NCBI GenBank assembly: GCA_016710095.1
Contig: JADJLL010000007.1
Coordinates: 41,122 to 105,121 of the forward strand
DNA from: Candidatus Eiseniibacteriota bacterium
GTDB lineage: Bacteria; Eisenbacteria; RBG-16-71-46
Reading direction: 5' to 3'
DNA length: 64,000 nt
The position numbers were made by a program, and so were the translations under genes. Position 1 is the first letter of the stretch. Each line of letters starts with the position of its first letter. Below the pieces are notes generated by a model, which searched no databases, had not been told where the DNA came from, and saw only the letters and a list, made by a program, of their open reading frames with translations. Of the stretch, positions 3,644-58,143 are shown in pieces.

Positions 3644-4477
3644 CTACTCGGTCGGCAGGTCCTGCTTGAGCACGGCGTCCGGCGGCGTCCATTCCTCTTC
3701 GGAAGCCGCACCGGCGGTGGCCGAGACCTCTTCCAGCGGGCGCTTGTAGATGACGCCGAGGGCGAAGCGGCCGTCGCGCACCGCGTTGATCGCGGCGCCG
3801 AGATCGGTCTTGTCGTACTCGACCGGCAGCTCGTAGCTGCGCTGCAGCAGCAGGTCCGAGTAGTTGCGCGGCTGGTACGTCACGCAGCCCGCGAGCACGT
3901 GCACGAACGAGAAGCCGGGATACTCGATCGCCTGCTTCATCATGTCGCGCATGTGCGGCATGTTGCCCGCGTGCGTGCGCGCCACGAAGCCGCAGCCCGC
4001 GCTCAGCACGAGCAGCACGGGATTGAGCGGCTGTTCGTCGCCGCCCGCGAGACCGCGGCTGCGCTTGGACTCGAGTTCGGTCGTGGGCGAAGCCTGGCCC
4101 TTCGTGAGGCCGTAGATGCCGTTGTCCATCACGATGTACGTGATGTTGATGTCGCGGCGGATGGCGTGCGGCAGGTGGCCGAGACCGATCGAGAAGCCGT
4201 CGCCGTCACCGCCGACCACGACGGTCGTCAGTTCGGGGCGCGCGGTCTTGAGCCCGCTGGCGATCGGCAGCGCGCGGCCGTGAATCGTGTTGAACGAGTA
4301 CGCCTTCACGTAGCCGGGCAGGCGGCTCGAGCAGCCGATGCCGGAGATGACCGCGAGCTTCTCGGGCGCGACGTTGAGATCGGAGAGCGCCTGGGTGAGT
4401 CCCTTGAGCACGCCGAAGTCGCCGCACCCCGAGCACCACACGGGCAGGAGTTCGGTCCGCAGATCCTTGGGCTTCAT
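3644..4477 (-). CDS. korB: 2-oxoglutarate:ferredoxin oxidoreductase beta subunit (TPP-binding)
   Basis: KorB/PorB-family TPP-binding hallmarks (CSGCGDFG, GIGCSSR, GGDGDGFSIG). AAAGGAGCGA RBS. Start ATG is adjacent to the korA stop. Confidence 0.9.
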   Translation of the reverse strand: MKPKDLRTELLPVWCSGCGDFGVLKGLTQALSDLNVAPEKLAVISGIGCSSRLPGYVKAYSFNTIHGRALPIASGLKTARPELTTVVVGGDGDGFSIGLGHLPHAIRRDINITYIVMDNGIYGLTKGQASPTTELESKRSRGLAGGDEQPLNPVLLVLSAGCGFVARTHAGNMPHMRDMMKQAIEYPGFSFVHVLAGCVTYQPRNYSDLLLQRSYELPVEYDKTDLGAAINAVRDGRFALGVIYKRPLEEVSATAGAASEEEWTPPDAVLKQDLPTE

Positions 4478-6241
4478 CTATCGCTCCTTTCGGGTCGCGG
4501 AGAGGCCGAGCATCTCGTCCAGCTCGCGCATGGACATCGGCAGGCCGCCGCTGCGCGCGAAGCTGCGCACGCCGTTCATGTCGGTGAGGCTCGAGAGGTA
4601 GCGGTGGAACTGGCCCTGGTAGCTGAGTTCGACCGTGGTGGTCTCGTCCAGGCCCTTGCGCCATTCCGTGAACGCTTCGAGCGGGAACGGATGCAGGATC
4701 TCGGGCATGAACACCCGGTACTCGGGATGCGTCTCGATCCACTCGCTGAGCATGCCGAAGCTGCTGCCCCAGGCGATGATGCCCTTGGCCGCCTTCGGGT
4801 CGCCGAACGTGCGCACCCAGCCGCGCGTGTCGGCCGCGATGGACTCGAGCTTGCGGAAGCGCTTCTCGCTCATGCGCTGGTGCACGCCGGGGTCGGCGCT
4901 CGGATTGCCGTCTTCGGTGTGCTCGATGCCGGCGGCGAGGTACGTGCCGCCCGGCGTGCCGGGCACGCGGAACGCGTTCACGGGCTGGTCCTCGGACAGC
5001 TGGAAGCGGGCCGGGGCGTCCTCGGGCGTCCAGCGCCAGCGCCGCGGCTTGTCGCGCCGGTCGGTGACGCCGTCGCGGATCTGGCGGCGCTGCGCGACGT
5101 ACGCGTCCGACAGCACGAGCACGGGCAGCTGGTAGTTCTCCGCCAGCTCGAACGCGCGGAACATGACGTCACGCGCGTGCACGACGTCGAACACGCCGAG
5201 CACGGCGCGCGGGAAGTCGCCGTGGCCGCCGTAGATCGCGTGGTAGAGGTCGGACTGCTCGGTGCGGCTCGGCATGCCCGTGGCCGGGCCGGCGCGCTGG
5301 CAGTCCACGATGACCGTCGGGATCTCGGCCATGCTGGAGAGGCCCATCATCTCGGTCATGAGCGACAGTCCCGGGCCGCTCGTCGCGGTCATGGACGGCA
5401 CGCCGCCGAAGCTGGCGCCGACGACCATGCCGAGCGCCGAGATCTCGTCCTCGGCCTGGATGACGCGGCCGCCCACGGCGGGCAGTTCGTCGATGAGCGT
5501 CTCCATGACCTCGGACGACGGCGTGATCGGGTAGCCCGCGAAGAACTCGAGCCCGGCCGACATGGCGCCGCGCGCGACGGCTTCGTTGCCCGTCTCGACG
5601 ACGAGCGGCACGCCGTGGCCCTTGAGCTGGAGCAGCTGCGGCACGTTCGGCGCTTCGTACGCCTTGCGGAACGTCGGCATGTTGCGCTCGACGAGCGCGG
5701 GCTTGTGCGAGAAGCGTTCGGCGAGCGCCTGCTGGGCGAGCGACTCGGGCCAGCCGAGCGCGCGGCAGACGAGCGCGAGCGCCATCATGTTCTTCGGCTC
5801 GCCGGCCACTTCGACGTCGCCGTCCCAAGTCGCGAACGGATGACGGAAGGCCGGCTTCTTCATCGTGCCGAGCCAGTCGGGAAGCGCGCCCGGGTCCTTC
5901 TCTTCGAGGATCAGCTGGCTTTCGTCGTGCAGGTGGAGCGAGCCCTTGAAGCGCTTGAGGTCGGAGGCGCGGAAGCACACGAGCACGTCCGTGTCTTCGC
6001 CTTCGTAGCAGATCTCGCGATCGCCGATGCGCAGCACGACGGCGGACTCGCCGCCGCGGATCTGCGGACCGTACGACTGCACGAGGATGCCGTAGAGGCC
6101 CTGGTGCGCGGCCATCTTGAGCAGGAGGTCGCCGATGAGGGCGACGCCGTCACCGCCGCTGCCGGCGATCGCGATGACGAGTGATCGCAGGGGTGTGGCT
6201 GTCGCCGAGGAGGCGGGCATCGCTTCGGTGCGCGTTTCCAT
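4478..6241 (-). CDS. korA: 2-oxoglutarate:ferredoxin oxidoreductase alpha subunit with fused N-terminal gamma domain
   Basis: N-terminal gamma-type domain (IAIAGSGGDGVALIGDLL) fused to a KorA/PorA-type alpha domain (GYPITPSSEV...). Start is 3 nt after the rnfB stop (TGAACCATGG). Confidence 0.9.
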   Translation of the reverse strand: METRTEAMPASSATATPLRSLVIAIAGSGGDGVALIGDLLLKMAAHQGLYGILVQSYGPQIRGGESAVVLRIGDREICYEGEDTDVLVCFRASDLKRFKGSLHLHDESQLILEEKDPGALPDWLGTMKKPAFRHPFATWDGDVEVAGEPKNMMALALVCRALGWPESLAQQALAERFSHKPALVERNMPTFRKAYEAPNVPQLLQLKGHGVPLVVETGNEAVARGAMSAGLEFFAGYPITPSSEVMETLIDELPAVGGRVIQAEDEISALGMVVGASFGGVPSMTATSGPGLSLMTEMMGLSSMAEIPTVIVDCQRAGPATGMPSRTEQSDLYHAIYGGHGDFPRAVLGVFDVVHARDVMFRAFELAENYQLPVLVLSDAYVAQRRQIRDGVTDRRDKPRRWRWTPEDAPARFQLSEDQPVNAFRVPGTPGGTYLAAGIEHTEDGNPSADPGVHQRMSEKRFRKLESIAADTRGWVRTFGDPKAAKGIIAWGSSFGMLSEWIETHPEYRVFMPEILHPFPLEAFTEWRKGLDETTTVELSYQGQFHRYLSSLTDMNGVRSFARSGGLPMSMRELDEMLGLSATRKER

Positions 6242-6244
6242 GGT

Positions 6245-7121
6245 TCAAGCTCCAGTCGGTTCGGCGATTTCGACCAGCTCCGGCTCGGGCGACTGCCCGA
6301 CCTTGTGCATGATCGTACTGGGACAGATGTCGGTGCAGGCCTCGCCGCAAGACGGACCGTAGGCGATGCACACCTCGTGGTCGATGAGGATCGTACGGCC
6401 GTCCCACGTGATGGCGTTGGCCGGGCACTTCGAGACGCACTTGCGGCACGTCGTGCAGCCCACCATGCAGGTGGAGCGCACCACGGACGACTTGTCCACC
6501 GCCTTGCACGAGAGCTCGATGCGCCGGGCCCGCGGGTAGAGGCGGAAGAGGTCCTTCGGGCACACCGCCACGCACACCGCGCAGCCGGTGCACTTGTCGG
6601 TGTTCACCTGCGCGATGCCGCCCGTGCCGATGAACAGCGCGTCGAACGGGCACGCGCGCACGCAGTCGCCGAGTCCGAGACAGCCGTTCTTGCACGCACG
6701 CGGGCCGCCGAAGATGAGCGCGGCCGCGCTGCAGGTCGGAATGCCGGCGTAGAGCGCTTCGTCGCGCGCGAACGCCGAGGTGCCGTGGCAGGTCATCACC
6801 ACGACGCGGTCCTCGACCCAGCCCGCGTCCTTGCCGGCCAGTTCGGCGACGGCGCGCGCGACCGGACTCGCGGCCGGGAATGCACAGGCTGGGGGAGACG
6901 TCGGCGCGTTCGACGACGGCTTCGGCGTACGCCGTGCAGCCGGCGAAGCCGCACGCGCCGCAGTTGGCCGACGGCAGCCGGTCGCGCACGCGGTCCACGA
7001 GCGGGTTGCCCGCGACCTTGAAGCGTTCCGCGGCCGCGCCGAGCGCGATGCCGAAGACGGCGCCGAGGCCGCTGAAGACGCCCAGTCCGTAGAGCGCGGT
7101 GTGCAGGGATTCGGAAGTCAT
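6245..7121 (-). CDS. rnfB: Rnf complex subunit B (Fe-S, polyferredoxin-like), with apparent 1-nt frameshift near 6870-6876
   Basis: The N-terminus (MTSESLHTALYGLGVFSGLGAVFGIALGAAAERFKV...NCGACGFAGCTAYAEAV...CIPG) is in one frame. The ferredoxin part (…ARAVAELAGKDAGWVEDRVVVMTCHGTSA...CLGLGDCVRACPFDA...CTGCAVCVAVCP...) is in the -1 frame. Removing one C in GGCCGC restores a canonical RnfB. Confidence 0.8.
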
Positions 7122-7128
7122 GGGCGCC

Positions 7129-7995
7129 TCACCGGAAGAAGTCGAGGCCGGAGAAGCCCATGAACGCGAGCGCGAACAGTCCGGCGAGCGCGAACGCGAT
7201 GGGCAGGCCTTCGAATGCCTTGGGCACGCGCGCGAGTTCCATCTTCTCGCGGGCGCACGACATCAGGAACAGCGCGAGCGCGAAGCCGAGTCCGGAGCCG
7301 AGCGCGAGCACCAGCGCTTCGATCGCCGAGACCTTGCCCTGCGCGTTCAGGAGCGGCACGGCGAGAATGATGCAGTTCGTCGTGATGAGCATGAGGTACA
7401 CGCCGAAGCTCTTGTGGAGCGCCGGGTGCGTCTTGCGCAGCATCGTGTCGAGGAACTGCACGACCGCGGCGACCGTCCCGATGAACACGAGCACCTGCAG
7501 GAAGCCCAGGTGCAGCGGCTGCAGCGCGAACGTGTCCACGGCCCAGGACGTCATCGCGGTGAAGATCATGACCGCCGTGAACGTGACGCCCATGCCGACC
7601 GCGGCGTCGCGCTTCTTGGAGACGCCGAAGAAGATGCAGAGCCCGAGGTAGCGCGTGAACACGAAGTTGTTGATGAGCGCCGACGACAGGAACAGCGTGA
7701 CGAGCGTCGCCCACGCCGTGGGGAAGACGTCGCGCGAAATCGGCGGGTCCACGACCTCGAGCTTATAGCGCTCGGTCGCGTGCAGCGCCTGCGTCGCGGT
7801 GAGCGTCACCACGCGGCCCTCGGCCTTCACGCCTTCGAGCGCCATGGGCGCGTCGGGCGCGGCGGCTTCGGCGAAGCGGAAGTTGGCGGTCGTCGCGCCC
7901 GCGGGATCGAACGGCCCGCGGAACGTGACGCGCACCTGGTTCGGCGTGCGGATCGTGACGGACTCGATCGTGTTGCCGCCGTCGGCGGCCTGCAC
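7129..7995 (-). CDS. rnfA: Rnf complex subunit A with unusual ~95-aa N-terminal extension (possible true start at 8107 via another frameshift)
   Basis: The canonical RnfA core (…LFLSSALINNFVFTRYLGLCIFFGVSKK...) is preceded in-frame by a protein-like, high-GC3 domain (TIESVTIRTPNQVRVTFRGPFDP...KLEVVDPPI). An ATG at 8107 overlaps the rnfE stop and encodes a signal-anchor-like MAERRFPSVRTALLTALAPLALVAALLLGAAAAW in the +1 frame. Confidence 0.8.
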   Translation of the reverse strand: MQAADGGNTIESVTIRTPNQVRVTFRGPFDPAGATTANFRFAEAAAPDAPMALEGVKAEGRVVTLTATQALHATERYKLEVVDPPISRDVFPTAWATLVTLFLSSALINNFVFTRYLGLCIFFGVSKKRDAAVGMGVTFTAVMIFTAMTSWAVDTFALQPLHLGFLQVLVFIGTVAAVVQFLDTMLRKTHPALHKSFGVYLMLITTNCIILAVPLLNAQGKVSAIEALVLALGSGLGFALALFLMSCAREKMELARVPKAFEGLPIAFALAGLFALAFMGFSGLDFFR

Positions 7996-8099
7996 GGATC
8001 CGGCGCCACGCAGCAGCCGCGCCGAGCAGCAGCGCCGCGACGAGCGCCAGCGGGGCGAGCGCGGTGAGCAGCGCCGTGCGGACGGAAGGGAATCGCCGC

Positions 8100-8750
8100 T
8101 CAGCCATGGTGACCTCCGGCGGCGGGCTTCGCGGTGCCGCCCGTCAGCTTGCGTTCGAGCGCGTTGAAGAACGCCATGAGCAGCGCGATGGAGAAGAAGC
8201 CGCCCGCGGGGAGCGCGAAGAAGAGCAGCGGCTTGGTCTTGAAGAGCACGATCCCGAAGAACGAGCCCGAGCCCAGCACTTCGCGCAACGCGCCGATGAC
8301 CATGAGCGCGATCATGAAGCCGAGGCCCATGCCGACGGCGTCCCAGAACGAGGGCACCAGCGGCTGGCGCGACGCGAACACTTCGAGGCGCGAGATGATG
8401 ATCGCGAACGCCACGATGAGCTTGATGTAGAGCCCGACCTGCGCGTACAGCGACGGCGTGAACGCCGCGAGCGTCATGTCGATCGCGCTCACCCAGACGG
8501 CGATGATGATCGTGTAGACCGGGATGCGCACGCGCGGATGAATGACGCCGCGCGCGATCGCGACGGTCAGGCTGGAGAGCACCTGCACCGCGAGCACGGC
8601 GACGCCGAGGATGAAGCCGTTCGCCACGGTCGTCGTGACCGCGACGGCGGGGCAGAGGCTGAGCGCCAGGCGGAACACGGGGTTCTCGCTGACGATGCCG
8701 TTGAAGAGCAGCTGCAGGGCGCCCGGGGGGCGCTCGGTGGTCTCGCTCAT
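8100..8750 (-). CDS. rnfE: Rnf complex subunit E
   Basis: MSETTERPPGALQLLFNGIVSENPVFRLALSLCPAVAVTT... is an RnfE/NqrD-family membrane protein. Its ATG overlaps the rnfG stop (ATGA). Confidence 0.85.
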   Translation of the reverse strand: MSETTERPPGALQLLFNGIVSENPVFRLALSLCPAVAVTTTVANGFILGVAVLAVQVLSSLTVAIARGVIHPRVRIPVYTIIIAVWVSAIDMTLAAFTPSLYAQVGLYIKLIVAFAIIISRLEVFASRQPLVPSFWDAVGMGLGFMIALMVIGALREVLGSGSFFGIVLFKTKPLLFFALPAGGFFSIALLMAFFNALERKLTGGTAKPAAGGHHG

Positions 8751-9667
8751 CGCGAAGCTCCTTCGCCTTCGAGCTGCGGCGCGAGCAGCGCCCAGCGGCG
8801 GCGGAAGTGATCCACGGTTCCCTTGACGCCGCGCGTCAGCGCGCGGCTCGAGATCGTGGCGCCGGTGACGGCGTAGATGGGCTTCGTGCGTTCGCGGTCC
8901 ATCAGCGTGCGCCATTCGGCCGGCGCTTCGCCGCCCGTGGACGAGGCGAACGCCGACAGCGCCGCGTGCCAGTCTTCCGGCATCGGGTCGCGCGTCACGC
9001 CGAGCGCCGCGATCTCGTCCGGCGTGCGGCCGGAGAACTGCGCGCGGAACACGGGGGTCGCGATCTCGGCGCCGAGGCCGGGATCTTCTTCGTGCTCGAG
9101 CACGCGCACGCCCTTCACCGCGAGCGACGAGTCGAGCGCCACGAAGAAGCGGATGCGGTTCTTGTAGCCGCGCGACTCACCCTCGAGCACGAAGCCCGCG
9201 AGCGCGCCGCCCTGTTTGGCGACGAACAGCCGCCCGAGCTCCTCGAGCCCGGCGGGCTCGGCCGTGTTCGCCGACTCCGCCGACTCCGCGGCGCCGGAGG
9301 CGGAGGCGACGGCCCCCGCCGTGGAAGCATGCAGGCTGCCGTCGAGCCCGAACACGAACTCGCGCGTCGGCGCGGACTCGTTGCCGTACTCCTTCGCGAG
9401 GTAGCGCACCTCGCGCTTCGGCGCGTCGAGGTACTGCCGCACTTCGGTCACCTCGGCGCCTTCGCCGAACGCGAGCATGCCGCTCACCGCGCTACGCTCG
9501 CCCGCGAGCCGGGCTTCGCGCTGGTAGCGCTCCGTGCCGACGTACACGCCGCCGAGCACGATCGCGCTCACCGCGCAGACGAGTACGAGGTTCATGGCGA
9601 TGCCGGCGATGACCTTGGGATCGGCTTTCGGACGCGGGGCGCCGTCGATGTGGACGAGGTCGCTCAT
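8747..9667 (-). CDS. rnfG: Rnf complex subunit G (FMN-binding)
   Basis: N-terminal TM anchor then an FMN-binding domain (…YAVTGATISSRALTRGVKG, the covalent-FMN Thr/Ser motif). ATGA overlap with the rnfD stop. Confidence 0.85.
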   Translation of the reverse strand: MSDLVHIDGAPRPKADPKVIAGIAMNLVLVCAVSAIVLGGVYVGTERYQREARLAGERSAVSGMLAFGEGAEVTEVRQYLDAPKREVRYLAKEYGNESAPTREFVFGLDGSLHASTAGAVASASGAAESAESANTAEPAGLEELGRLFVAKQGGALAGFVLEGESRGYKNRIRFFVALDSSLAVKGVRVLEHEEDPGLGAEIATPVFRAQFSGRTPDEIAALGVTRDPMPEDWHAALSAFASSTGGEAPAEWRTLMDRERTKPIYAVTGATISSRALTRGVKGTVDHFRRRWALLAPQLEGEGASR

Positions 9668-10647
9668 GACGGGCTCCCGGCGATGGCGGTGCGCTTCGGC
9701 CGGAACCACAGGTCGAGCGCGGGCGCCATGGCATTGGCGATCAGGATGGCGTAGCAGATGCCTTCGGGATATCCGCCGTACACGCGGATCATGCCGGTGA
9801 GCAGGCCGATCATCAGTCCGAACGCGATCTGCGCGCGCGTCGTGCTCGGCGAGGTCACGTAGTCGGTCGCCATGTAGAACGCGCCGATCCAGAAACCGCC
9901 GCTCATGAGGTGCAGCATCGGCACGCCGGTGTGCAGCGTCGAGAGTGCGACGCCCGCGAGCACGCTGAGCGGAATCGCGAGCGTGATGATGCGGCGGGCG
10001 AGCAGCGCGGCGCCGCCGATCGCGACGAGCAGGAGCGAGACTTCGCCGATCGAGCCCGGGCGGAAGCCGAGCGCGAGCGCGTTCCACAGCCCGACGGGGC
10101 TGGAGACGAGCTTCACCGCGGCTTCGAAGCCCTGCTCCTTGAGCACGGCGAGCGGCGTGGCGGTCGTGACCGCGTCGAGCGGCACCCCGAACCACGGCCG
10201 CGGCGTCGCCCAGCCCGAAGTCATGTTGAGCGGGAACGTCGCCATGAGGAACGCGCGGCCGAGCAGCGCCGGGTTGAAGAGATTGAAGCCGAGCCCGCCG
10301 AAGATCATCTTGCCGAGCCCGATCGCGAACATGGAGCCGAGGAAGGCCTGCCACGCCGGAAGGTTGGGATTGACGGTCAGCGCGAGCAGCAGCCCCGTGC
10401 ACACCGCGCTGCCGTCCATGAGCGTCGGACGGCGGCCGAGCGCCTTCTGCGAGACGAACTCGGTGAGCACCGCGCCCGCGATGGACGCGAGGATCACGAA
10501 CGCCGCGTTGATGCCGAACACGAACACGCCCCAGAGCGCGGCCGGCGCGAGCGAGCCGTTGACCCACCACATGATCTTCGAGGTGGATTCCTCGGTGTGC
10601 AGGTGCGGGCCGGGCGAGAGGACGAAGGTCGGATGGGTCTCGCTCAT
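9664..10647 (-). CDS. rnfD: Rnf complex subunit D
   Basis: MSETHPTFVLSPGPHLHTEES...GFNLFNPALLGRAFL...ATGATISS-type NqrB/RnfD membrane protein. ATGA overlap with the rnfC stop. Confidence 0.9.
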   Translation of the reverse strand: MSETHPTFVLSPGPHLHTEESTSKIMWWVNGSLAPAALWGVFVFGINAAFVILASIAGAVLTEFVSQKALGRRPTLMDGSAVCTGLLLALTVNPNLPAWQAFLGSMFAIGLGKMIFGGLGFNLFNPALLGRAFLMATFPLNMTSGWATPRPWFGVPLDAVTTATPLAVLKEQGFEAAVKLVSSPVGLWNALALGFRPGSIGEVSLLLVAIGGAALLARRIITLAIPLSVLAGVALSTLHTGVPMLHLMSGGFWIGAFYMATDYVTSPSTTRAQIAFGLMIGLLTGMIRVYGGYPEGICYAILIANAMAPALDLWFRPKRTAIAGSPS

Positions 10648-12003
10648 GACGCGCTCCTCGTGGCGGCGGCGCGCCGAAGCGCCGACTTCGCGACCTGCAT
10701 GAACTGCACGAGCGGGCGCGAGGACGGACAGACGTAGCTGCAGCAGCCGCACTCGTAGCAGTCGAGCGCGCCGTGCGGTTCGCAGTCGAGCGTGCGCCCG
10801 ACTTCGACGCGCACGGAAACCTGGTCGGGTTCGAGTCCGAGCGGGCAGGCGTCGAGGCAGCGGCCGCAACGGATGCATGCTCCGAAACCGTCCTCGAGCG
10901 GACCGCGGCCGGTGAGCATCACGAGCCCGTTCATGCCCTTGATGAGCGGCACGTCGAGGCGCGGGAGCGATCGGCCCATCATCGGACCGCCCGCGACCAT
11001 GCGGTGCGTCTCGGGCTTGATGCCGCCGCAGAACTCGACGATGTCGGCGAGCGAGGCGCCGAGCGGCGCGCGCACGTTGCGCGGCTGCACGATGCCGGGA
11101 CCCGTCACGGTGAGGATGCGGTCGAGCAGCGGCTTGCGATACCGCAGCGCGTCGTACACGGCCTGCGCGGTCGCGACGTTCTGCACGAGCACGCCGACGG
11201 CCGAAGGCAGCTGCCGTGCGGGAACGGTGCGGCCGGAGACCGCGAACACGAGCTGCTTCTCGGCGCCCTGCGGATACCGCGCGACGCACGGCACGACCTC
11301 GACCGGGATCGAACGGTCGGTCAGCGCCGCGGCCGCCTTGCCGATCGCTTCGATCGCGTCGGGCTTGTCCGATTCGACGCCGATGAGCACCTTCTTCGCT
11401 CCGGCGATCTTCGCGATCAGCACCGAGCCTTCGACGATCTCGGTCGGGTACGCGAGCATCACGCGGTAGTCCGACGTGAGGTACGGCTCGCACTCGGCGC
11501 CGTTCATGACGAGCAGGTCGACCTTGGCCGCACGCGCGAACTCGAGCTTGCGCCAGGTGGGGAAGGCCGCGCCGCCCAGCCCGACGATGCCGGCCTCACG
11601 CACGCGCGAGAGCGATTCCTCGAGCGGCAGGTTGCGCCACTCGGGATCCTCGGGGAACTCCAGCTCGGGGCCGGCGTCGACGTTCGCGCCGATTGCGAGC
11701 GACATGGCGATCGCCATGGTCGGGTGCGGGCGCTTGTCCACGGGCTTGATCTTGCCGCTGATGGGAGCGTGCAGCGGCACGCCCGTCTTGCCGCCCTCGG
11801 CGATCTTCTGGCCGCGGCGCACCATCTCGCCCTTCTTCACGCACGGCTCGGCCGGCTCGCCGAGGTGCTGCAGCAGCGGAAGCACCACCTCGGAAGGCGT
11901 GGGGAGATCCTCGATCTCACGGGAGGCGGTGGCCTCCTTGTGCGGACCGGGATGGATCCCGCCTCGCCCGAAGGTGTGCAGGGAACTCGTCGCAGTGGTC
12001 ATC
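10644..12003 (-). CDS. rnfC: Rnf complex subunit C (NADH/flavin-binding, 2x[4Fe-4S])
   Basis: RnfC hallmarks: GGIHP, LVMNGAECEPYLTSD, C-terminal CIRCGRCLDACP...CYECGCCSYVCPS. ATG is 5 nt after the apbE stop. Confidence 0.9.
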
Positions 12004-12007: not shown

Positions 12008-13033
12008 TCACCCGATGTAGTGGGTGGCCAGGCGATTCGCGATCGCGCCTTCGCCGGCGGGGCCGGTGAGGAAGGCGAGCGAGGAGCCCTCGTCCGAATC
12101 CGTTCCGGTACGCGCCAGCACGCTCGCGCTCAAGCGCGGGTTGGCCGGGCGTCCGAGCTTCGCATCGAGCAGGTGGCCGACGCGCACTCCGTCGAGCGTG
12201 GTCCACTGTTCGTAGTTGCCGCTGGTCGCGACCGCCGAGTCGCGCAGGTGGAACACGTGATCCACCTCGCCGCTCGTCGGATGAAGCACGCCGACCGCCC
12301 AACCGTCGGAGTCGTCCGACGGGCGGCCGATGCCGTACACGTTGCGGCCCACATCGACGAGGCCCGACTCGATGCCCTCGGCGCGCATGGCGGCGACCGC
12401 GCGGTCGAGCGCCCAGCCCTTGCCGATCGCGCCCAGGTCGAGCGCGGCGCCGTGCGTCGTGAGCGCGACCGTGCTCGCGGCCCGGTCGATCTTCAGGTGG
12501 CGGACGCCGGTGAGCGCGAGCGCGTCCTTCAGTTCGCGGTCCGTCGGCAGGTGCGAGCGGCCCGAACGATAGAACCCGTAGAGCCGCATGAGCGGCAGCA
12601 CGGTCGGATCCACGACGCCGTTCGAGGCGATCGCGCCGGCCTGCGCGCGTTCGAGCACTTCGATCAGGTCGTCGCTCACGCGGACGGCGCCTTCACCGGC
12701 GGCCGCGTTCACGCGGGACAGTTCGCTGTCCGCGCGGTGGACACTCATCTGGGCGTCCACGGTCGCGATGGCCGACCAGGCGCGAGCGATGGCGCGGTCC
12801 GCGACGCGGGCGTCGGGATGCTGGGCGACGAGGCGCACCCAGGTGCCGAGCGCGGCGCGGGAGGACTCGATGCGCTCGTTCGAGCGCGAGAACTGGCGGG
12901 ACAGATAAGGAGCAGTCAGGCCCGCGCCGGCCAGGAGGCCGAGGCTCAGGAGGAAACGCCGGCGGCTCAACGTTCCGGTGGGCGTGTCCTTGGGCAGCAG
13001 GGTGAGCGCACGAGCAGTCTTCTTCGCATGCAT
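12008..13033 (-). CDS. apbE: FAD:protein FMN transferase (ApbE family), Tat-signal lipoprotein-like
   Basis: RRRFLLSLGLLAGAG twin-arginine signal. ApbE-family body (…GAIGKGWALDRA…). Typical partner of RnfG/RnfD flavinylation. GGGAGGA RBS. Confidence 0.85.
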   Translation of the reverse strand: MHAKKTARALTLLPKDTPTGTLSRRRFLLSLGLLAGAGLTAPYLSRQFSRSNERIESSRAALGTWVRLVAQHPDARVADRAIARAWSAIATVDAQMSVHRADSELSRVNAAAGEGAVRVSDDLIEVLERAQAGAIASNGVVDPTVLPLMRLYGFYRSGRSHLPTDRELKDALALTGVRHLKIDRAASTVALTTHGAALDLGAIGKGWALDRAVAAMRAEGIESGLVDVGRNVYGIGRPSDDSDGWAVGVLHPTSGEVDHVFHLRDSAVATSGNYEQWTTLDGVRVGHLLDAKLGRPANPRLSASVLARTGTDSDEGSSLAFLTGPAGEGAIANRLATHYIG

Positions 13034-13190
13034 GACGCGATTCGTCCTCCCAACAGTGAACGAGTTCCTGCTTCCGTGAATTGTCTGTCGGAGTAAATCC
13101 CAAGCATAGGTTATGCAAGGGATTCAGGAGTGCCCGGCGATTCCGCCGGTTGGGAGTGGAAAACGCCGACCCTCAAGAGGAGAGAACGCG

Positions 13191-13400
13191 ATGGGCAAGC
13201 TGCCCGAATTCTATGTCGATCAAGACCTTTGCACGGAATGTGGCGACTGCATCAAGGCAGTGCCGCAGGCATTTCGGAAGGTCGAGGATGAGGAAGTCGC
13301 CGAGGTCCACACGTGGGAGCTCGAAGACACTTTCATGCCACGAGTTCAGCAAATCATGACAGATTGTCCGGGACGGGCGATCCTCTGGCGTAAGAAGTAG
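13191..13400 (+). CDS. small single-cluster ferredoxin
   Basis: 69 aa, MGKLPEFYVDQDLCTECGDCIKAVPQAF...TDCPGRAI (CxxCxxC...CP pattern). GAGGAGAG RBS. Heads the por operon and is divergent from the apbE-rnf operon. Confidence 0.65.
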   Translation: MGKLPEFYVDQDLCTECGDCIKAVPQAFRKVEDEEVAEVHTWELEDTFMPRVQQIMTDCPGRAILWRKK

Positions 13401-13407
13401 GCCGGCC

Positions 13408-14388
13408 ATGAGAACTCTCGACCCTCGCCAGATCTTCGAGCAGTCCGCGCTCGAAGTTCGTGGGGATGGGAAGGCGGGCGGTGGTTTGGTTCTGGCTTTC
13501 CAGAGCCTCGCCGCCTTGTTCTCTTCTCTTCCCAACATGCATGTCCAGGAGTGGCCGTTCTTCAGCTCCGCTCGTCGCGGCGCGAACATCCGCTCCTTCC
13601 TGCGCGTCAGCGCCAAGCCGATCGACGTGGGCTGCGAAGTGACGCGCCCCGTGATCTCGCTGCTGATGGACGAAGTGACGGGCAAGACCGTCGACTTCGC
13701 CGGCGGCGTTCCGCACGGTGGCACCTTCGTCCTCAACACGCGCCGTACGCCCGAGGAGTGCGCCAAGCACTTCCATCTGTCGGGACGCGTGATGACCGTG
13801 CCCGGTGACGACATCGGCACCCGCTACCTCAAGCACCCGATCGGCAACGTGTCGGCGTACGTCGCCATGACCGAAGCGATCGGTGGCCTCGAGTTCGAAA
13901 CCGTGGTCGGGACGTTCCTCGGCCAGCTCAAGAAGCGCCGCATTCCCGAGGTGCTGCTCGAGCGCAATCGCGAAGCGCTGCACGCCACCAAGGAGTCCAT
14001 CCAGGTCGGCGTGTTCGACGAAGCGCGGCCCGGCGATCACGCCACGACCGTCTTCACCGGTTACGGCGAGCTGCCGATCGGCGCGCAGACGCGCCTGCGT
14101 CTGTCGCAGACGAACCACACCGCCGCGTTCGCGCGCAGCGGCTTCCGTCTGCTGTTCAACGATCCGAACAAGTCGTGCACGGGCTGCTCGCACTGCATCA
14201 CGAACTGCCCCGAAGGCATCATCCGCTTCCAGCCGGACGAGGAACGCGGTGTGCTGGTGACGGGCGCGGACGTGAGCGCGTTCTGCAAGCTGTGCGGCGA
14301 GTGCATCGCCGTGTGCCCCGAGAAGCTCTTCACCGAGGGCAAGTACGAGGAAGTCTGGGACGAAACCGTGACGGAGGCCCGCTCATGA
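13408..14388 (+). CDS. porG: 2-oxoacid:ferredoxin oxidoreductase fused gamma-delta subunit (PorG + 2x[4Fe-4S] PorD)
   Basis: N-terminal gamma domain (…GDGKAGGGLVLAFQSLA…), C-terminal delta ferredoxin (CTGCSHCITNCP…CKLCGECIAVCP). ATGA overlap with the next gene. Confidence 0.85.
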   Translation: MRTLDPRQIFEQSALEVRGDGKAGGGLVLAFQSLAALFSSLPNMHVQEWPFFSSARRGANIRSFLRVSAKPIDVGCEVTRPVISLLMDEVTGKTVDFAGGVPHGGTFVLNTRRTPEECAKHFHLSGRVMTVPGDDIGTRYLKHPIGNVSAYVAMTEAIGGLEFETVVGTFLGQLKKRRIPEVLLERNREALHATKESIQVGVFDEARPGDHATTVFTGYGELPIGAQTRLRLSQTNHTAAFARSGFRLLFNDPNKSCTGCSHCITNCPEGIIRFQPDEERGVLVTGADVSAFCKLCGECIAVCPEKLFTEGKYEEVWDETVTEARS

Positions 14389-15716
14389 GCACGATCGGCA
14401 TCGAACACGGGCCGACGACGCACGTCGCGACACCGGGCGGGGAGCGGTACGACATCCTCAACCTCGAGCGCGTGAAGCAGGCCCACATCCCGTTTTATCC
14501 GAACCAGGAAGACGTGACGGCCGACGGCAACACCGCGGCGGCCATCGCCACGCTGCAGATGTGGCGCGCCCTCATCTATCCCGGCTTCCCGATCACGCCC
14601 TCGACCAAGTGGATCGAGACCGTGGCGGCGAAGGTCGGAGCCCAGAAGGGCACCAAGAAGCGCGTGAAGCTGCTCGAAGCCGAGCACGCGGTCGCCGACT
14701 ACATGGTCGGCGCCGGCGCGGCCTGCCGGGATCTCATCTTCTCGACGGCCACCAGCTCGGTCGGGCTCGATCACATGACCGAGACGACGCGCTCGCTGGG
14801 CGCTTCGGGCCTCGGAAACGTCATGATCATCAACGTCTACCGCGCGACGGCGAACTTCCCGCTCTGCATCGAGGGCGATCCGTCCGACGCGATGGCGCAC
14901 CGTGACGACGGCTTCATCCAGATCTGCGCGCGCGGCAAGCAGCAGATCTACGACACCGTGATCCAGGCGCCGTGCCTCGGCATGCACCCCGAGGTCATGA
15001 CGCCCACGATGCCGGGCTACTACGGCATCAAGGACAGCCACCGGAACTCGCGCTTCACCGTCGAGTCCGACGGCGCGATCCACGAGTTCCAGGACCGTTG
15101 GCTGCAGCCCTGCCATCTGCCGGGCACGATCAACGGCGACACCGCGATGGGCAACTGCGTCACGTCGCGGCATTTCCAGGGCTTCAAGATCAACCAGAAG
15201 CGCCGCATCGAACGCGTGCTCGACATCCTTCCGCAGATCGGGGCGGACTTCGAGAAGACGTTCGGCCGTCCGGGTCTCCGTTTCTTCGACGAGACCGCGT
15301 GGCCCGAAGCCGGTCCGGTGGACATCGCCGTCGTCGGCATGGGGCCGGATTACGGCACGTTCGAATCCGTGCGCGAGGCGTGGGCGAAGAAGAACAACGT
15401 GAGTGTCTCGGGGCTCGCCCTGCGGCTGCTCAATCCGTTCCCGCGCGACGCGTACCGCGAGAAGCTGCAGCGCGCGAAGGTCGTGCTGGTCGTGAACCAG
15501 GCGCATCACTCCGGCCGCGGTCACCTCACGCTCGACGTCGCCGATGCGCTGGCGGGCATCGAGCCGCAGCCGCGGATCGTCAGCGCGTTCGCCGGTATGG
15601 GCGGTGCGGACGTCTCCGAGGCGACCTGGGAAGCGATGCTGGACGAAGCGAAGGACGCGCTCACGACGGCGCCGCGCCAGCCCTACATGGTCTTCCACGA
15701 AGGAGCGCGGCTATGA
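14385..15716 (+). CDS. porA: 2-oxoacid (pyruvate/2-oxoisovalerate):ferredoxin oxidoreductase alpha subunit
   Basis: …GNTAAAIATLQMWRALIYPGFPITPSTKWIE… is a PorA/VorA family member. ATGA overlap with porB. Confidence 0.85.
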   Translation: MSTIGIEHGPTTHVATPGGERYDILNLERVKQAHIPFYPNQEDVTADGNTAAAIATLQMWRALIYPGFPITPSTKWIETVAAKVGAQKGTKKRVKLLEAEHAVADYMVGAGAACRDLIFSTATSSVGLDHMTETTRSLGASGLGNVMIINVYRATANFPLCIEGDPSDAMAHRDDGFIQICARGKQQIYDTVIQAPCLGMHPEVMTPTMPGYYGIKDSHRNSRFTVESDGAIHEFQDRWLQPCHLPGTINGDTAMGNCVTSRHFQGFKINQKRRIERVLDILPQIGADFEKTFGRPGLRFFDETAWPEAGPVDIAVVGMGPDYGTFESVREAWAKKNNVSVSGLALRLLNPFPRDAYREKLQRAKVVLVVNQAHHSGRGHLTLDVADALAGIEPQPRIVSAFAGMGGADVSEATWEAMLDEAKDALTTAPRQPYMVFHEGARL

Positions 15717-16723
15717 GCAGCTTCAAGGAAATCGCACTCAAGGACAGCTGTTTCCGGGCCGGCTCCACGCTGTGCCCCGGCTGCATGGAGTCGGTCGCGT
15801 TCCAGAACATCGGACGCGTCACCGACAACGGCGTGAAGACGATCTTCACGATCGGCACGTCGTGCGCCGAAGTGTCCACGCTGGCGTTCCCGAACGTCGT
15901 GGCGTGGGGACGTGGCGACGACTCGTCGGACGACTTCGGCAAGAGCTTCTCGATCCTGCACAACGTGTTCGAGTCGGCGCCCACGCTCGCGGAAGCGACG
16001 CGTGACGTGGCCGACGCGCTCATGGACTGCGGCGCTCTCGATCGCAAGGTGCAGATCATCAGCACCGGCGGCGACGGCGGCGCGTTCTCGATCGGCCTGC
16101 GCACGCTGCTGCACACGATTCATCGCCGCGCTCGCGTCACGATCGTCATTCTCGTGAACGAGATCTTCGCGAACACGGGCTTCCAGTACAGCCCGGCCAC
16201 CATGCCGTACGCGGACACGAGCACCACGCCCGCCGAAGGCGCCCCCGGCAACATGAACCCGCCGCTCGACTACATCCATCTCGCCATCGCGGCGGGAGCG
16301 GGCATGGTCGCGCAGCTGTCGCCGGCGCACGGCAAGATGTTCGTGAAGGCCATCGAGCGGTCGCTGGAAGTCGAGGGGACGGCGGTGATCTTCGTGCCGG
16401 CGCCCTGCATCAGCGGCTGGAAGTTCGAAGACGGGCAGACCGTCGAGCTCGCGCTTCTCGGCGCCCGCAGCGGCGTGTTCCCGGCCTTCACGTGGGAGCG
16501 TGGCAAGGGTGGTTCGGTGAAGGATTGCTCGATCGAGGCTTCGGAGCGCCCGGACGTCGTGGACTTCCTCGCGATGCAGCGGCGTTTCGCGCACCTCGTG
16601 CAGCGCGACAAGGTGACCGGCGAAGTGAAGCCGAAGCCGGGCCGCGAGCAGGACATCGAGAACCTGAAGGGCTGGGTGCAGGGCAACGTCGAGCGCATGT
16701 ACTCGCTCGCGAACCTCAAGTAG
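15713..16723 (+). CDS. porB: 2-oxoacid:ferredoxin oxidoreductase beta subunit (TPP-binding)
   Basis: CPGCMESVAFQNIGR…TGGDGGAFSIGLRTLLH (TPP and [4Fe-4S] motifs). GAAGGAG RBS. Confidence 0.85.
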   Translation: MSSFKEIALKDSCFRAGSTLCPGCMESVAFQNIGRVTDNGVKTIFTIGTSCAEVSTLAFPNVVAWGRGDDSSDDFGKSFSILHNVFESAPTLAEATRDVADALMDCGALDRKVQIISTGGDGGAFSIGLRTLLHTIHRRARVTIVILVNEIFANTGFQYSPATMPYADTSTTPAEGAPGNMNPPLDYIHLAIAAGAGMVAQLSPAHGKMFVKAIERSLEVEGTAVIFVPAPCISGWKFEDGQTVELALLGARSGVFPAFTWERGKGGSVKDCSIEASERPDVVDFLAMQRRFAHLVQRDKVTGEVKPKPGREQDIENLKGWVQGNVERMYSLANLK

Positions 16724-22778: not shown

Positions 22779-22989
22779 GGCATTCCTCCGGGATTCCGAC
22801 GTGCAACGCGTGACGCGGGAAAGTCTCGGATGCGGACGCCGCGGCTGCAGTACGAGGCGACGAACGCGGTGTGCCGTCCTCGCGTGCCGCGCAAGTGCCG
22901 GTAAACGGGTGGGAGGACGTGCCGCGCGGCAAGCACGAGGCCCGCGGGCGTGACGCCCACGGGCCTCGGTGTCGCGAAAGGCGCGGCGG

Positions 22990-50711: not shown

Positions 50712-51221
50712 GTGACGCGCATGACCCGGACAGCGGATCACTGGATCCGCACGCTGGCCTTGCAGCCGCATCCCGAAGGGGGATGCTTCCGCGAGACGTG
50801 GCGCAGCCCCGAGCGCGCGGAAGCGGTGGGGCTGCCGGAGCGTTTCGCCGGACCGCGCTCGCTCGGCACGTCCATCTTCTACCTGCTGCGTTCGGGCGAG
50901 CGTTCGCGCCTGCACCGGCTGCTCGCCGACGAGGTGTGGCACTTCCACGACGGCGGCGGGCTGCGCCTGCACGTCCTGGCGCCCGGCGACGTCTACAGCG
51001 AGCTGAAGCTCGGGCTGGACGTCGAGGCGGGGGAGCTGCCGCAGGTGGTGGTGCCGAACGGCTGCTGGTTCGCGGCCGAGACGGCGCCGGGCGTCGAGTA
51101 CGCGCTGGTGGGATGCGCGGTCGCGCCGGGTTTCGAGTACGGTGATTTCGAATTGGGCGACCGCGAGATGCTGCTCGCCGCCCATCCGCGGCACCAGGAA
51201 TTGGTGCTGCGCTTCACGTGA
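50712..51221 (+). CDS. cupin-fold protein (DUF985-like)
   Basis: Small cupin barrel with conserved HPEGG…H pattern. Annotation by motif only. Confidence 0.55.
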   Translation: MTRMTRTADHWIRTLALQPHPEGGCFRETWRSPERAEAVGLPERFAGPRSLGTSIFYLLRSGERSRLHRLLADEVWHFHDGGGLRLHVLAPGDVYSELKLGLDVEAGELPQVVVPNGCWFAAETAPGVEYALVGCAVAPGFEYGDFELGDREMLLAAHPRHQELVLRFT

Positions 51222-51235
51222 GGCGGGAGAGCGAC

Positions 51236-53467
51236 ATGTCCATCCGTTTGAACAAGCTCATGGCGAATCGCGGTGTCGGTGCGCGACGCAAGTGTGACCT
51301 CCTGATCCAGGAAGGACACGTGCGCGTGAACGGCCGCTTGGTGACCGAGCCCGGCACCACGGTCGAGGAACAGCGCGACCGCGTCGAAGTCAACGGACGG
51401 CCGCTCCCCGGCAAGCAGAAGCTTGGTTACTGGGTGATCAACAAGCCCGTCGGCGTGATCACCACGCTCGACGATCCGCATGGCCGGCCGACCATCGTGT
51501 CGTTCCTGCCGCGTGGCGTGCGGCTGTTCCCGGTCGGGCGTCTCGACGCCGACACGAGCGGCCTGCTGCTGCTCACGAACGACGGCGATCTCGCGCACAA
51601 GCTCATGCATCCGCGCTACGGCGTGAAGAAGTTCTATCGCGTGCGGCTCGATCGCGAGCCCACGAAGGGCCAGCTCGCGAAGCTCGAGCACGGTGTCGAG
51701 TTCGAGCCCGGTGTGGTGAGCGCGCCCGCGCGAGCGAGCCGCATCGATCCCGGTTTCGACGCGATCATGATCGAGGTCGTCATTCACGAAGGCCGCTTCC
51801 GGCAGGTGCGCCGCATGTGCGAAGCCGTCGGGATGCGCGTGATCGGCCTGCACCGCACGGGCTACGGTCCGATCCGTCTCGGGCCCCTTTCGCGCGGCAT
51901 GTTCCGCGAACTGTCCGAGGAAGAAGTCGAGCGCCTGAAGAAGGCGTGCTCGCGTCCGGCGAACCGCGCGGGGTTCGGAGGTGGTGTCGCCGCCGAAGGT
52001 GGCAAGCCCGGCCGCGGCAAGACCGCGGCGTTCGGCGCGCCGCCGGCGAAGCCTCGTCCGCAGGAGGCGCGTCGCGAGATGGCGCCCAGCGAGCCCGAGG
52101 ACGACGACGAGGAGGAGTTCGAGGAAACCTGGATCGCCGGCGGGGGATTCAATCCCGCCGAGGACGACGGGCCGGACGAGGGTGACGCGGCGGAAGCCGT
52201 GTGGCCCGCGCGTGCGGGTGGCCGTCGTGGCGATGCCGGTTTCGCGGCCGACGACGCCCCGAAGAGCGCGAAGGGCGCGAAGGCGCCGAAGGCGCCGAAG
52301 GCGACCAAGTTGCCTTCGCGTGCGGTCGCACCGTCGCGCGCCGTGACGGCGCCGATGAAGCCGCGCGATCGCTCGACCCGTGCCGACGGCGCCATGCCGT
52401 GGCACTCCGACGAGTACCGCCGTGGGCCTGCGGCCCCGTCGAGGGGCGCGGCCGCGGCCGAGCCTGCCGGCGCGGGCAAGGGCCGTCGCGCGCAGAAGCG
52501 CGAGGCCGAGCAGCGCCGCGTGGATCGCGAAGCGGCTCCGCCGGAGTCGCGCGATCGTGCGCGCGCGCTCGAGCGCGTGCGCCTGAAGGGCCAGCGCAAG
52601 TTCGATCGCAAGGAAGGCCGCGAGCGTTCGACGCCGGTCGACGGACCGATCCGTCGCTTCGGCGATCGTCCGGTGCCGGGCCGGTTCAAGCCGCGCGGAG
52701 AAGATCGTCCGGCGCGCACGGGCGGCAGCAACCGTCCCGCGCGCCCGACGGGCGCCGATCGTCCGGTGCGCGCTTCGGTCGGCCGTCCCACGGGACCGCG
52801 CGCGAGCGCGTTCGGTACGCGTGGGGGCGAGGGCCGCGATTTCGGCCAGCGCCGTCCCGAGACTCCGCCGCGTCGCGGGTTCCCGCCGCGTGGTGGTGAC
52901 GATGCGCCGCGCCGTGGCGGCTTCGCGCCGCGCGCCGGCGGTGACGCTCCTCCGCGCCGTGGCGGTTTCGCGCCGCGCGCCGGCGGTGACGCTCCTCCGC
53001 GCCGTGGCGGCTTCGCGCCGCGCGCCGGCGGTGACGCTCCTCCGCGCCGTGGCGGCTTCGCGCCGCGCGCCGGCGGTGACGCTCCTCCGCGCCGTGGCGG
53101 CTTCGCGCCGCGTGGGGACGACGGTCCGCCGCGTCGTGGCGGGACCGTCGGTCGTCCGGCCGGGCGCCCGGCGGCCGGTCGTCCGGCCGGTCCGCGTGGC
53201 ACCACGTCCGCTCCGCGTGGCCGCTTCGGCGCCGTACCCGCACGCCGGGAGGGACCGCCCTCGCGCGGTCCTCGTGCCGGTGGGGACAGCCCGCGTCGTG
53301 GCTCGTTCGGCGCTCCCGATCGTGCCGATCGTGGCGCTGCACCGCGGGGCAAATCCCCCCGTGGCGGCCGTCCGGTTGGGGGCCGTGACGCAGGCAGGCC
53401 CGCGCGTGACGCGGGACCGCGCCCGCGCGCCGGTCGCGACAGCGGTCCGGGGCGTCGTCGCAACTGA
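51236..53467 (+). CDS. rluB: 23S rRNA pseudouridine synthase (RluB/RsuA family: S4 + PseudoU_synth) with ~500-aa disordered Arg/Gly/Pro-rich C-terminal tail containing 15-aa tandem repeats
   Basis: S4 domain (IRLNKLMANRGVGARRKCDLLIQEGHVRVNG). Catalytic GRLDADTSGLLLLTNDG. Tail with PPRRGGFAPRAGGDA x4-5. Confidence 0.8.
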   Translation: MSIRLNKLMANRGVGARRKCDLLIQEGHVRVNGRLVTEPGTTVEEQRDRVEVNGRPLPGKQKLGYWVINKPVGVITTLDDPHGRPTIVSFLPRGVRLFPVGRLDADTSGLLLLTNDGDLAHKLMHPRYGVKKFYRVRLDREPTKGQLAKLEHGVEFEPGVVSAPARASRIDPGFDAIMIEVVIHEGRFRQVRRMCEAVGMRVIGLHRTGYGPIRLGPLSRGMFRELSEEEVERLKKACSRPANRAGFGGGVAAEGGKPGRGKTAAFGAPPAKPRPQEARREMAPSEPEDDDEEEFEETWIAGGGFNPAEDDGPDEGDAAEAVWPARAGGRRGDAGFAADDAPKSAKGAKAPKAPKATKLPSRAVAPSRAVTAPMKPRDRSTRADGAMPWHSDEYRRGPAAPSRGAAAAEPAGAGKGRRAQKREAEQRRVDREAAPPESRDRARALERVRLKGQRKFDRKEGRERSTPVDGPIRRFGDRPVPGRFKPRGEDRPARTGGSNRPARPTGADRPVRASVGRPTGPRASAFGTRGGEGRDFGQRRPETPPRRGFPPRGGDDAPRRGGFAPRAGGDAPPRRGGFAPRAGGDAPPRRGGFAPRAGGDAPPRRGGFAPRAGGDAPPRRGGFAPRGDDGPPRRGGTVGRPAGRPAAGRPAGPRGTTSAPRGRFGAVPARREGPPSRGPRAGGDSPRRGSFGAPDRADRGAAPRGKSPRGGRPVGGRDAGRPARDAGPRPRAGRDSGPGRRRN
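52906..53110 (+). repeat. 45-bp in-frame tandem repeat (~4.4 copies) inside rluB tail
   Basis: ccgcgccgtggcggcttcgcgccgcgcgccggcggtgacgctcct repeated head-to-tail. Encodes PRRGGFAPRAGGDAP. Confidence 0.7.
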
Positions 53468-55608: not shown

Positions 55609-56865
55609 ATGCGAAACGTGATGGCGTTGATCCTGTCCGGCGGCGGAGGAGAGCGCCTCGGCGTACTCTCGGCCGAGCGCGCGGTGAGTGCCTTGCCGTT
55701 CGGCGGCAAGTATCGCGTCATCGATTTCTCGCTGAGCAACTGCTGCCATTCGGGCATCGGCCAGGTCGGCGTGCTCGCGCAGCATGCGCCGGCTTCGCTC
55801 AACGATCACATCGGCGCGGGACGCCCGTGGGACCTCGACCGCCGCCAGGGCGGCGTCGTCATCCTGCAGCCGTACCAGACGCGCTCTCACGCGGGCTGGT
55901 ACCGCGGAACGGCCGACGCGATCACGCAGAACTGGAGCTACCTCGAGGAGCGCCGTCCCGAGCGAGTGCTCGTGCTGTCGGGCGATCACGTCTATCGCAT
56001 GGACTATCGCGCGCTGTTCCTGGCGCACGAGCAGCGCGGCGCGGCGGTGACGCTCGCCGTGCACGCGGGTGCCGTCCGACCAGACGCGGCGCTTCGGCAT
56101 GGTGACCATGGACCGCGGCGGCCGCGTGCGCACGCTCGAGGAGAAGCCCGAGCGCAGCGCCGCCACGCACGCCTCGATGGGCATCTACGTGTTCGAGTTC
56201 GAAGTGCTCGGCGAAATGCTGCGCACGCGCCCGGTGGATCTCGTGCTCGACGTGCTGCGTCCGCTCGTGGACGCGGGCGAGCGCGTGTACGCGCACGAGT
56301 TCAACGGCTTCTGGGAAGACGTCGGCACCGTGGCGTCGTACTACCGCGCGAGCATGGAACTCGTGCAGCCCGAGCCGCGCTTCCAGCTGCACGACGTTCG
56401 CTGGCCGATCCTCACGCGCGACGAAGAGCGTCCCGCGGCGATCGTCTCGGGCAACGCGCAGATCGAGGACAGCCTGATCGCGAACGGCTGCCGTATCGAT
56501 GGGCAAGTGCAGCGCTCGATCCTGTTCCCGGGCGTCTCGGTCGGACGCGGCGCCACGATCACCGACGCCGTCGTCATGGCGGACACCGTGATCGAGCCGG
56601 ACGCGCGCATCGACCGCGCGCTGCTCGACAAGTACGTGCGTGTGGGAGAGGGCGCGATCGTCGGCGACGGCGAGGAGCGCGGCCCGAGCGAACTGTCGTG
56701 GCTCTCGAACCTCGTGCTCGTGGGCAAGGACGCGTGGATCCCGCCGGGCGGCCGCGTGATGCGCCCCGCGCAACTGGGCGTCGGCGGACGTTACGAAGAC
56801 TTCGTGGACGGTGTCGTGCCTTCGGGCACGCTGGTCGGGAACCGCCGTTGGTTCGAGGAGCTGCG

Positions 56866-56869
<4 letters not shown>
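55609..56869 (+). CDS. glgC: glucose-1-phosphate adenylyltransferase paralog 1, with apparent 1-nt insertion frameshift in a G-run near 56065-56069
   Basis: N-terminal ORF (ALILSGGGGERLGVLSAERAVSALPFGGKYRVIDF…) and ORF 56069..56869 (…RRFGMVTMDRGGRVRTLEEKP…left-handed beta-helix C-terminus) are one GlgC in two frames. Removing one G from GCGGGT gives …TLAVHAVPSDQTRRFG…. Confidence 0.75.

Positions 56870-58143
<1,274 letters not shown>

Follow-up and report, generated by a model that had tools for sequence, protein, structure and literature searches.

Does the rnfA gene of this Candidatus Eiseniibacteriota locus encode a bare six-helix subunit, or a longer protein whose N-terminal part has been displaced into another reading frame? 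The question arises in a 64,000-bp stretch of contig JADJLL010000007.1 (positions 41,122–105,121; hereafter the window), in which rnfA occupies positions 7129–8107 of the minus strand. A 288-residue open reading frame (ORF; 7995–7129, minus strand) matches the Pfam Rnf-Nqr family only at residues 99–284, and its first ∼98 residues weakly match the immunoglobulin (Ig)-like family Big_5. Upstream, an ATG at 8107 overlaps the rnfE stop codon (8100–8102) by 8 bp, follows a Shine–Dalgarno sequence (GGAGGT) located 7 nt upstream, and encodes MAERRFPSVRTALLTALAPLALVAALLLGA, a hydrophobic segment one base off the frame of the 288-residue ORF. From these elements, all of which are present in the DNA, an earlier sequence-only reading had proposed that one indel separates the parts of a single protein comprising a signal-anchor helix, a periplasmic Ig-like domain and the RnfA core. 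With a probability of roughly 0.7, the intact gene encodes a 326-residue long RnfA with a signal peptide, an Ig-like domain of ∼85 residues and a six-helix core, and the window copy is split by a probable error.

Both pieces of rnfA carry a coding signal. A frame plot was computed without the annotation by a seven-state Viterbi procedure based on GC content by codon position, chiefly the third (GC3). The plot switches at 8017/8018 and 8117/8118, and the segment 8018–8117 has a frame of its own; the coding signal is therefore real in both rnfA pieces, far beyond chance. The frame opened by the ATG at 8107 turns into arginine-rich nonsense past the helix and reaches a stop at 7763. DNA alignment with the contigs L001 and L002, which encode the relatives P0001 and P0002, reveals that exactly 2 bp are absent from the window between 8018 and 8017 (GGCGCG--GCTGCTG versus GGCGCGCCGCTGCTG), and the same gap appears in the pairwise alignment with L001. 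In gene orientation, the missing bases are CC, and codon 31 (Pro, CCG) is destroyed in the hydrophobic core of the N-terminal helix. In-silico reinsertion of CC yields a 326-residue protein that equals P0001 except for one residue (Pro66 for Gln); P0001, also 326 residues long, is 98% identical over 100% of the hand-repaired query. The GTG at 7995–7993 that heads the 288-residue ORF corresponds to Val39 of the intact protein. The deletion uncouples the real start, with its Shine–Dalgarno sequence and rnfE overlap, from the remainder of rnfA. The single event that had been predicted suffices to fuse the parts, as a 2-bp deletion is frame-equivalent to a 1-bp insertion, but it lies at 8017/8018, just outside the interval suggested for it (7980–8010). 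The gene is organized as follows.

7129–8107, minus strand: rnfA, split by a frameshift at 8017/8018
8018–8107, minus strand: 5′ piece of rnfA with the start and first 30 codons (MAERRFPSVRTALLTALAPLALVAALLLGA), comprising the n-region and most of the h-region; equals P0001 residues 1–30
8017–8018, minus strand: frameshift site with CC missing, from DNA alignments and in-silico repair
7987–8016, minus strand: end of the h-region and c-region (LLRGAGSVQA); predicted VQA/AD cleavage site after codon 7989–7987, by the −3/−1 rule only
7720–7971, minus strand: Ig-like domain (Big_5/SbsA-type), putatively periplasmic; residues ∼47–130 of the repaired protein
7144–7701, minus strand: RnfA core with six transmembrane helices (Pfam Rnf-Nqr)
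7129–7131, minus strand: rnfA stop codon TGA

The long architecture is not peculiar to the window gene. More than 3,000 relatives were retrieved using the hand-repaired fusion protein as the query. The best 120 are nearly all 294–341 residues in length, and the others are a few truncated entries and four RnfE–RnfA fusions of ∼520 residues. More than 100 homologues of 300–326 residues combine a hydrophobic N-terminus, an Ig-like domain and the RnfA core in this order, and the extension occurs in close relatives and across the clade, as the proposed fusion had implied. Long RnfA with a signal peptide is found in about 58 retrieved loci, nearly all of which are labelled Eisenbacteria. A further 16 loci from Sterolibacterium, Sulfuritalea and gammaproteobacterial metagenome-assembled genomes (MAGs) encode an Ig-like RnfA without a signal peptide; these are found among L056–L075 and include L057 (5947–6774), whose protein begins with MADAKVVS. 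In a neighbour-joining tree of RnfA cores, the signal-peptide (58), signal-less (16) and canonical Nitrospirota (3) sequences are each monophyletic, and both Ig-bearing clades group together when the tree is rooted at its midpoint. The tree, in which three Nitrospirota sequences make up the canonical sample, is consistent with a single acquisition of the domain. Three public long-RnfA entries (P0123, P0133 and P0158) are visibly frameshifted or truncated, which suggests that metagenome assemblies often get the GC-rich long rnfA wrong. The reviews and structures examined depict RnfA as a bare six-helix subunit of ∼190 residues. No paper on the extra RnfA domain was found in the literature on RnfA extensions, Ig-like domains and Eisenbacteria Rnf, and a 2025 RNF/NQR review makes no mention of it. 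Judged by the retrieved sequences, long RnfA is apparently a widespread, undescribed variant of the Rnf A subunit.

The Ig-like assignment of the extra domain, first made from the sequence alone, is borne out by profile, model and fold comparison. Pfam Big_5 (PF13205) matches the window domain with 21.7 bits (E = 3.5e-4) against a gathering score of 23.6. Most domain copies lie at or under this threshold, and 19 of 31 domain sequences match Big_5 at E ≤ 1, the best at 5e-5. An AlphaFold model of P0001, built with 59 homologues, consists of a helix (residues 7–35), a seven-strand β-sandwich (residues 48–128; predicted local distance difference test score (pLDDT) of 90–96) and six transmembrane helices; the domain modelled alone has a pLDDT of 84. 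In a Foldseek search, the isolated domain retrieved the surface-layer (S-layer) Ig-like domains of SbsC (2ra1, E = 2e-5) and Sap, with E values of 2e-5 to 9e-4, template-modelling scores of 0.73–0.80 and root-mean-square deviations of 1.4–2.1 Å. A profile of the 31 domains also matches Sap in the PDB (E = 1.5e-4). Among 1.84 billion representative proteins, most matches of the same profile are giant multi-repeat surface proteins (Big_5), and fragments of long RnfA make up the others. The domain shares its seven-strand β-sandwich with SbsC (2RA1) and Bacillus anthracis Sap (6HHU and 8RW9); unlike their tandem arrays in surface or S-layer proteins, it occurs only once, as a fusion to a membrane subunit of a respiratory complex.

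The alignment of long RnfA proteins (A3) contains conserved NFR, APD, Tyr and DPP motifs in the domain and variable hydrophobic N-termini. The motifs seem to specify the fold rather than a functional site. No conserved cysteine or histidine is observed in the domain in this alignment, so a redox-cofactor role was rejected, and the domain is most likely a structural module that lacks a cofactor.

The segment preceding the domain has the layout of a signal peptide. In the repaired protein, a basic n-region (MAERRFPSVR) is followed by an h-region of ∼22 residues (TALLTALAPLALVAALLLGAPLL) and a c-region (RGAGSVQA/AD) with small residues at −3 and −1. A hydrophobic N-terminus is found in all 58 loci of the signal-peptide clade, and an AxA motif stands just before the first strand in 45 of the 59 aligned proteins. 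The N-terminal hydrophobic helix named by the sequence-only reading is present, but it resembles a cleavable Sec signal peptide (residues 1–41, VQA/AD) rather than the permanent anchor that had been envisaged. A twin-arginine translocation (Tat) signal, for which ERRF was a candidate, was rejected because the arginine pair is not conserved in relatives.

The arrangement of one N-terminal helix and six core helices would place the domain outside the membrane, as the earlier topology argument held. RnfA is reportedly oriented with its N-terminus outward (N-out). The inverted arrangement of RnfA and RnfE is cited in the 2025 RNF/NQR review. In the RnfE–RnfA fusions (P0097, P0100, P0101 and P0118; 520–526 residues), exactly one hydrophobic linker helix connects the cytoplasmic end of RnfE to the domain. 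Four further loci with long open upstream frames (L021, L023, L036 and L073) were rejected as fusions because their stop-to-stop spacing indicates separate genes. The signal-less domains are acidic, with a mean net charge of −5.1 and 5.3 Lys and Arg residues, compared with +0.2 and 10.5 in the signal-peptide class. Together, the one-linker-helix fusions and the acidic signal-less domains support a domain outside the membrane, and the 1 + 6 helices, the signal peptides and the fusion linker helix are consistent with a periplasmic location and with both RnfA termini on that side.

Escherichia coli ProW is said to export an N-tail of 100 residues independently of a signal. The proteobacterial long RnfA resembles ProW in that an acidic, signal-less N-domain of ∼80 residues precedes an N-out first helix; by this analogy, the acidity of these domains would be expected, as signal-independent N-tail export would require it. 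The Eisenbacteria form, including that of the window, differs from ProW in using a signal peptide. Export is predicted for both forms.

Downstream of the domain, the RnfA core is complete. It matches Rnf-Nqr (PF02508) over profile positions 2–173 of 174 (E = 1.2e-48), and the RnfA chains 9eri_A, 7zc6_A and 8ahx_A of the PDB match it at E = 1e-49 to 5e-47, starting at chain residues 2–5. The solved RnfA chains are all 190–191 residues long and align only to residues 135–322 of the repaired protein. In comparison with canonical RnfA and NqrE structures (7ZC6, 9ERI, 8AHX and 7XK3), long RnfA retains the six-helix core, with 45–46% identity to the solved RnfA chains, but carries ∼134 extra N-terminal residues that have no counterpart in those chains. 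The C158 (YLGLC) and C246 (TTNC) residues are invariant in the 59 sequences of the alignment. In the structure from Clostridium tetanomorphum, two RnfA cysteines at the breaks of helices I and IV ligate the RnfA/E metal centre (PMC9588780), and long RnfA shares both ligands with canonical RnfA, along with the rnfCDGEAB order and an associated apbE. TIGR01943 scores 206.4 bits, under its trusted cut-off of 229.3, and is still the best family (nqrE, 143 bits); on these profile scores, the window RnfA is a divergent subfamily member. The neighbouring RnfC and RnfB place the gene in an rnfCDGEAB cluster and not in one with NqrA and NqrF. By core sequence, cysteines and operon, the cluster is of the Rnf type. 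Public names for the protein are inconsistent ('NADH-quinone reductase' and 'Rnf-Nqr domain containing protein'), which fits the scores of RnfA and RnfG under the NCBIfam cut-offs.

The partner RnfG is enlarged as well. In all 57 measurable long-RnfA loci, which fall within L003–L080, RnfG spans 271–322 residues from stop to stop (305 in the window), making it ∼90–100 residues longer than canonical RnfG (194 residues in the Nitrospirota locus L079; 187 positions in the TIGR01947 model). The window RnfG matches TIGR01947 at residues 127–288 only, with 77 bits and under the 102-bit cut-off. Insertions are located after the transmembrane helix and linker and, by visual comparison with canonical RnfG, immediately before the TGAT motif that binds flavin mononucleotide (FMN). 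In the C. tetanomorphum structure, a helix and loop at the N-terminus of RnfA lie near RnfG, which itself moves back and forth between RnfAE and RnfD (PMC9588780). The Ig-like domain would accordingly be an extra structural module without a cofactor, attached to the N-terminus of RnfA and adjoining the mobile FMN-carrying RnfG. Because long RnfG co-occurs with long RnfA and the RnfA N-terminus lies near mobile RnfG in that structure, our best guess, loosely held, is that the domain braces or shields the enlarged periplasmic electron-shuttle module of RnfG.

The gene belongs to a tightly packed apbE-rnfCDGEAB-korAB cluster on the minus strand (13033–3644 of the window).

12008–13033, minus strand: apbE (flavin adenine dinucleotide:protein FMN transferase), first gene of the cluster
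10644–12002, minus strand: rnfC, 452 residues, intact; 462 bits, above the NCBIfam cut-off
9664–10647, minus strand: rnfD, 327 residues, intact; 278 bits, above the NCBIfam cut-off
8747–9667, minus strand: rnfG, 306 residues, enlarged
8100–8750, minus strand: rnfE, 216 residues, intact
6245–7121, minus strand: rnfB, frameshifted at 6863, with the iron–sulphur (FeS) domain and the Fer4 domains in different frames
4478–6241, minus strand: korA, directly downstream of rnfB; korAB encodes a 2-oxoacid:ferredoxin oxidoreductase
3644–4477, minus strand: korB, 2-oxoacid:ferredoxin oxidoreductase

Overlaps of 4–8 bp join the genes from rnfC to rnfA. The 8107 overlap had been likened to those of all other rnf genes, and the likeness holds with the exception of rnfB, which begins at 7121, past the rnfA stop at 7129 and with no overlap. 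The order with korAB after rnfB is also found in L002 and L083, the same neighbourhood occurs in a relative with 66% RnfA identity, and nearly every one of the public loci that match best is from a Candidatus Eisenbacteria MAG. Divergent from apbE-rnf, the plus strand encodes a small single-cluster ferredoxin (13113–13400) and a second 2-oxoacid:ferredoxin oxidoreductase, which comprises a gamma–delta fusion (13408–14388), an alpha subunit (∼14378–15716) and a beta subunit (∼15701–16723). This arrangement of a ferredoxin and a second oxidoreductase (13113–16723) is also present in the distant Eisenbacteria genome L083.

The origin of the split was assessed from the window as a whole. At least three frameshifts are observed in the 64 kb, in rnfA, rnfB and glgC, and all of them are length changes in short G/C runs. 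In rnfB, an additional G at 6863 (TCCGGTCG, where two relatives have TCC-GTCG) splits the FeS domain from the Fer4 domains. The first of two tandem copies of glgC (glucose-1-phosphate adenylyltransferase; 55609–56869, plus strand) contains an extra G (GG to GGG) at ∼56064–56067, and its halves match positions 3–154 and 156–365 of a 382-position model; the second copy (∼56860–58143) is intact. Because the three frameshifts share this G/C-homopolymer character, an artefact is most likely and a real lesion less likely. The rnfA frameshift is absent in relatives that are 98%, 91% (L003) and 87% identical, and alignment with L001 contains two indel events but only 14 substitutions in 2,464 columns. 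Small clusters of non-synonymous differences beside the rnfB indel and within rnfE, at positions that are the same in L001 and L002, likewise speak for an artefact. The 2-bp deletion is probably a homopolymer-length error of sequencing or assembly in an indel-prone consensus. The frameshift itself is ordinary and probably artefactual; the underlying architecture is real and widespread.

Two further suspected frameshifts were rejected. That at 22821–22978 is an intergenic spacer before a PDZ-domain gene, and that at ∼52690 is the RGG-repeat tail of a pseudouridine synthase, by reading of the ORF translation only. The latter ORF (51218–53467, plus strand), which resembles a pseudouridine synthase by sequence alone, has a very long Arg/Gly/Pro-rich C-terminal tail with tandem PRRGGFAPRAGGDAP repeats, which confused the frame plot. 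In rnfE, five substitutions fall within 17 bp (8458–8474, minus strand) relative to the 99.4%-identical L001, and they produce A93T and V98T, where L001 and L002 share the same residues. This cluster may be a local artefact of the consensus or of strain mixing.

Several observations weigh against the reading proposed here. The case for cleavage consists of AxA motifs in an alanine-rich sequence, that for the role of the domain consists of co-occurrence and one sentence about a distant structure, and the canonical RnfG used for comparison is one retrieved locus (L079) and the TIGR01947 model. A scan of Joint Genome Institute metagenomes matched neither allele of the frameshift site, so that no independent copy of the strain was obtained. 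In addition, two of the three frameshifts fall in the same operon at a distance of 1.15 kb, and this proximity could equally reflect inactivation of rnf in the strain.

The last point leads to the main rival, in which the 2-bp deletion is genuine and the rnf operon is being inactivated in the strain or population, with rnfA and rnfB as pseudogenes. The intact relatives indicate an in-frame ancestral state from which such a loss could have started, and several non-synonymous changes are clustered near the rnfB indel (T95A, S101W and Q103E within 50 bp downstream of 6863). However, the unrelated glgC, 48 kb away, has the same kind of homopolymer indel. Stop codons and other signs of decay are absent, and the frame-specific GC3 signal is fully kept downstream of each shift. 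The other rnf genes, apbE and korAB are intact, and an intact copy shares 99.4% identity with the sequence. A genuine lesion is accordingly considered unlikely, although it is the strongest of the alternatives to a sequence error.

A second alternative takes the sequence as correct and assumes that translation from the GTG at 7995 yields a functional, signal-less RnfA, practically the mature protein, which is exported as an N-tail. This would have a parallel in the 16 proteobacterial MAG loci that encode signal-less Ig-like RnfA from an ATG overlapping rnfE, and Val39 is located two residues before the predicted cleavage site. However, no Shine–Dalgarno sequence precedes the GTG (GCCGGATCC), while GGAGGT precedes the ATG at 8107, and ribosomes that start at 8107 would cross the GTG in the other frame and continue to 7763. 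The window domain contains nine Lys and Arg residues and has a net charge of −2 (counted from the sequence), like the signal-peptide class and not the acidic signal-less class. Given this charge and the lack of a ribosome-binding site at the GTG, its product would probably not be exported. Moreover, the signal peptide is kept in every retrieved locus of the Eisenbacteria-type clade. Translation from the GTG is therefore regarded as very improbable. A programmed +1 ribosomal frameshift, for which both frames are open across the junction, is effectively refuted, since the shift is absent in all relatives with their intact genes, no slippery or stop-codon-stimulated motif occurs at 8018 and two further unconserved frameshifts are present in the same window.

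The favoured reading, a long RnfA gene split by a probable error, carries a flag for genome quality: homopolymer indels disrupt no fewer than three conserved genes, so that rnfA and rnfB would be misannotated as pseudogenes or as truncated genes. For the Rnf family, it points to a divergent variant that explains the inconsistent naming by annotation pipelines and that spans a candidate phylum and a group of Betaproteobacteria and Gammaproteobacteria. Three topological solutions appear within this variant, namely a signal peptide, a signal-less acidic N-tail and an RnfE–RnfA fusion. It is a tentative and rather doubtful suggestion that the Rnf complexes with long RnfA and long RnfG, in Eisenbacteria and Sterolibacterium-like Proteobacteria, form a distinct structural subclass whose periplasmic add-ons, the Ig-like domain of RnfA and ∼100 inserted residues near the FMN site of RnfG, alter electron shuttling by RnfG. 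If this were true, the add-ons might gate the RnfG swing, protect the exposed flavin where the periplasm is oxic or provide a docking site for a periplasmic partner. The long-RnfA clade lends itself naturally to work on RnfG as a mobile periplasmic module.

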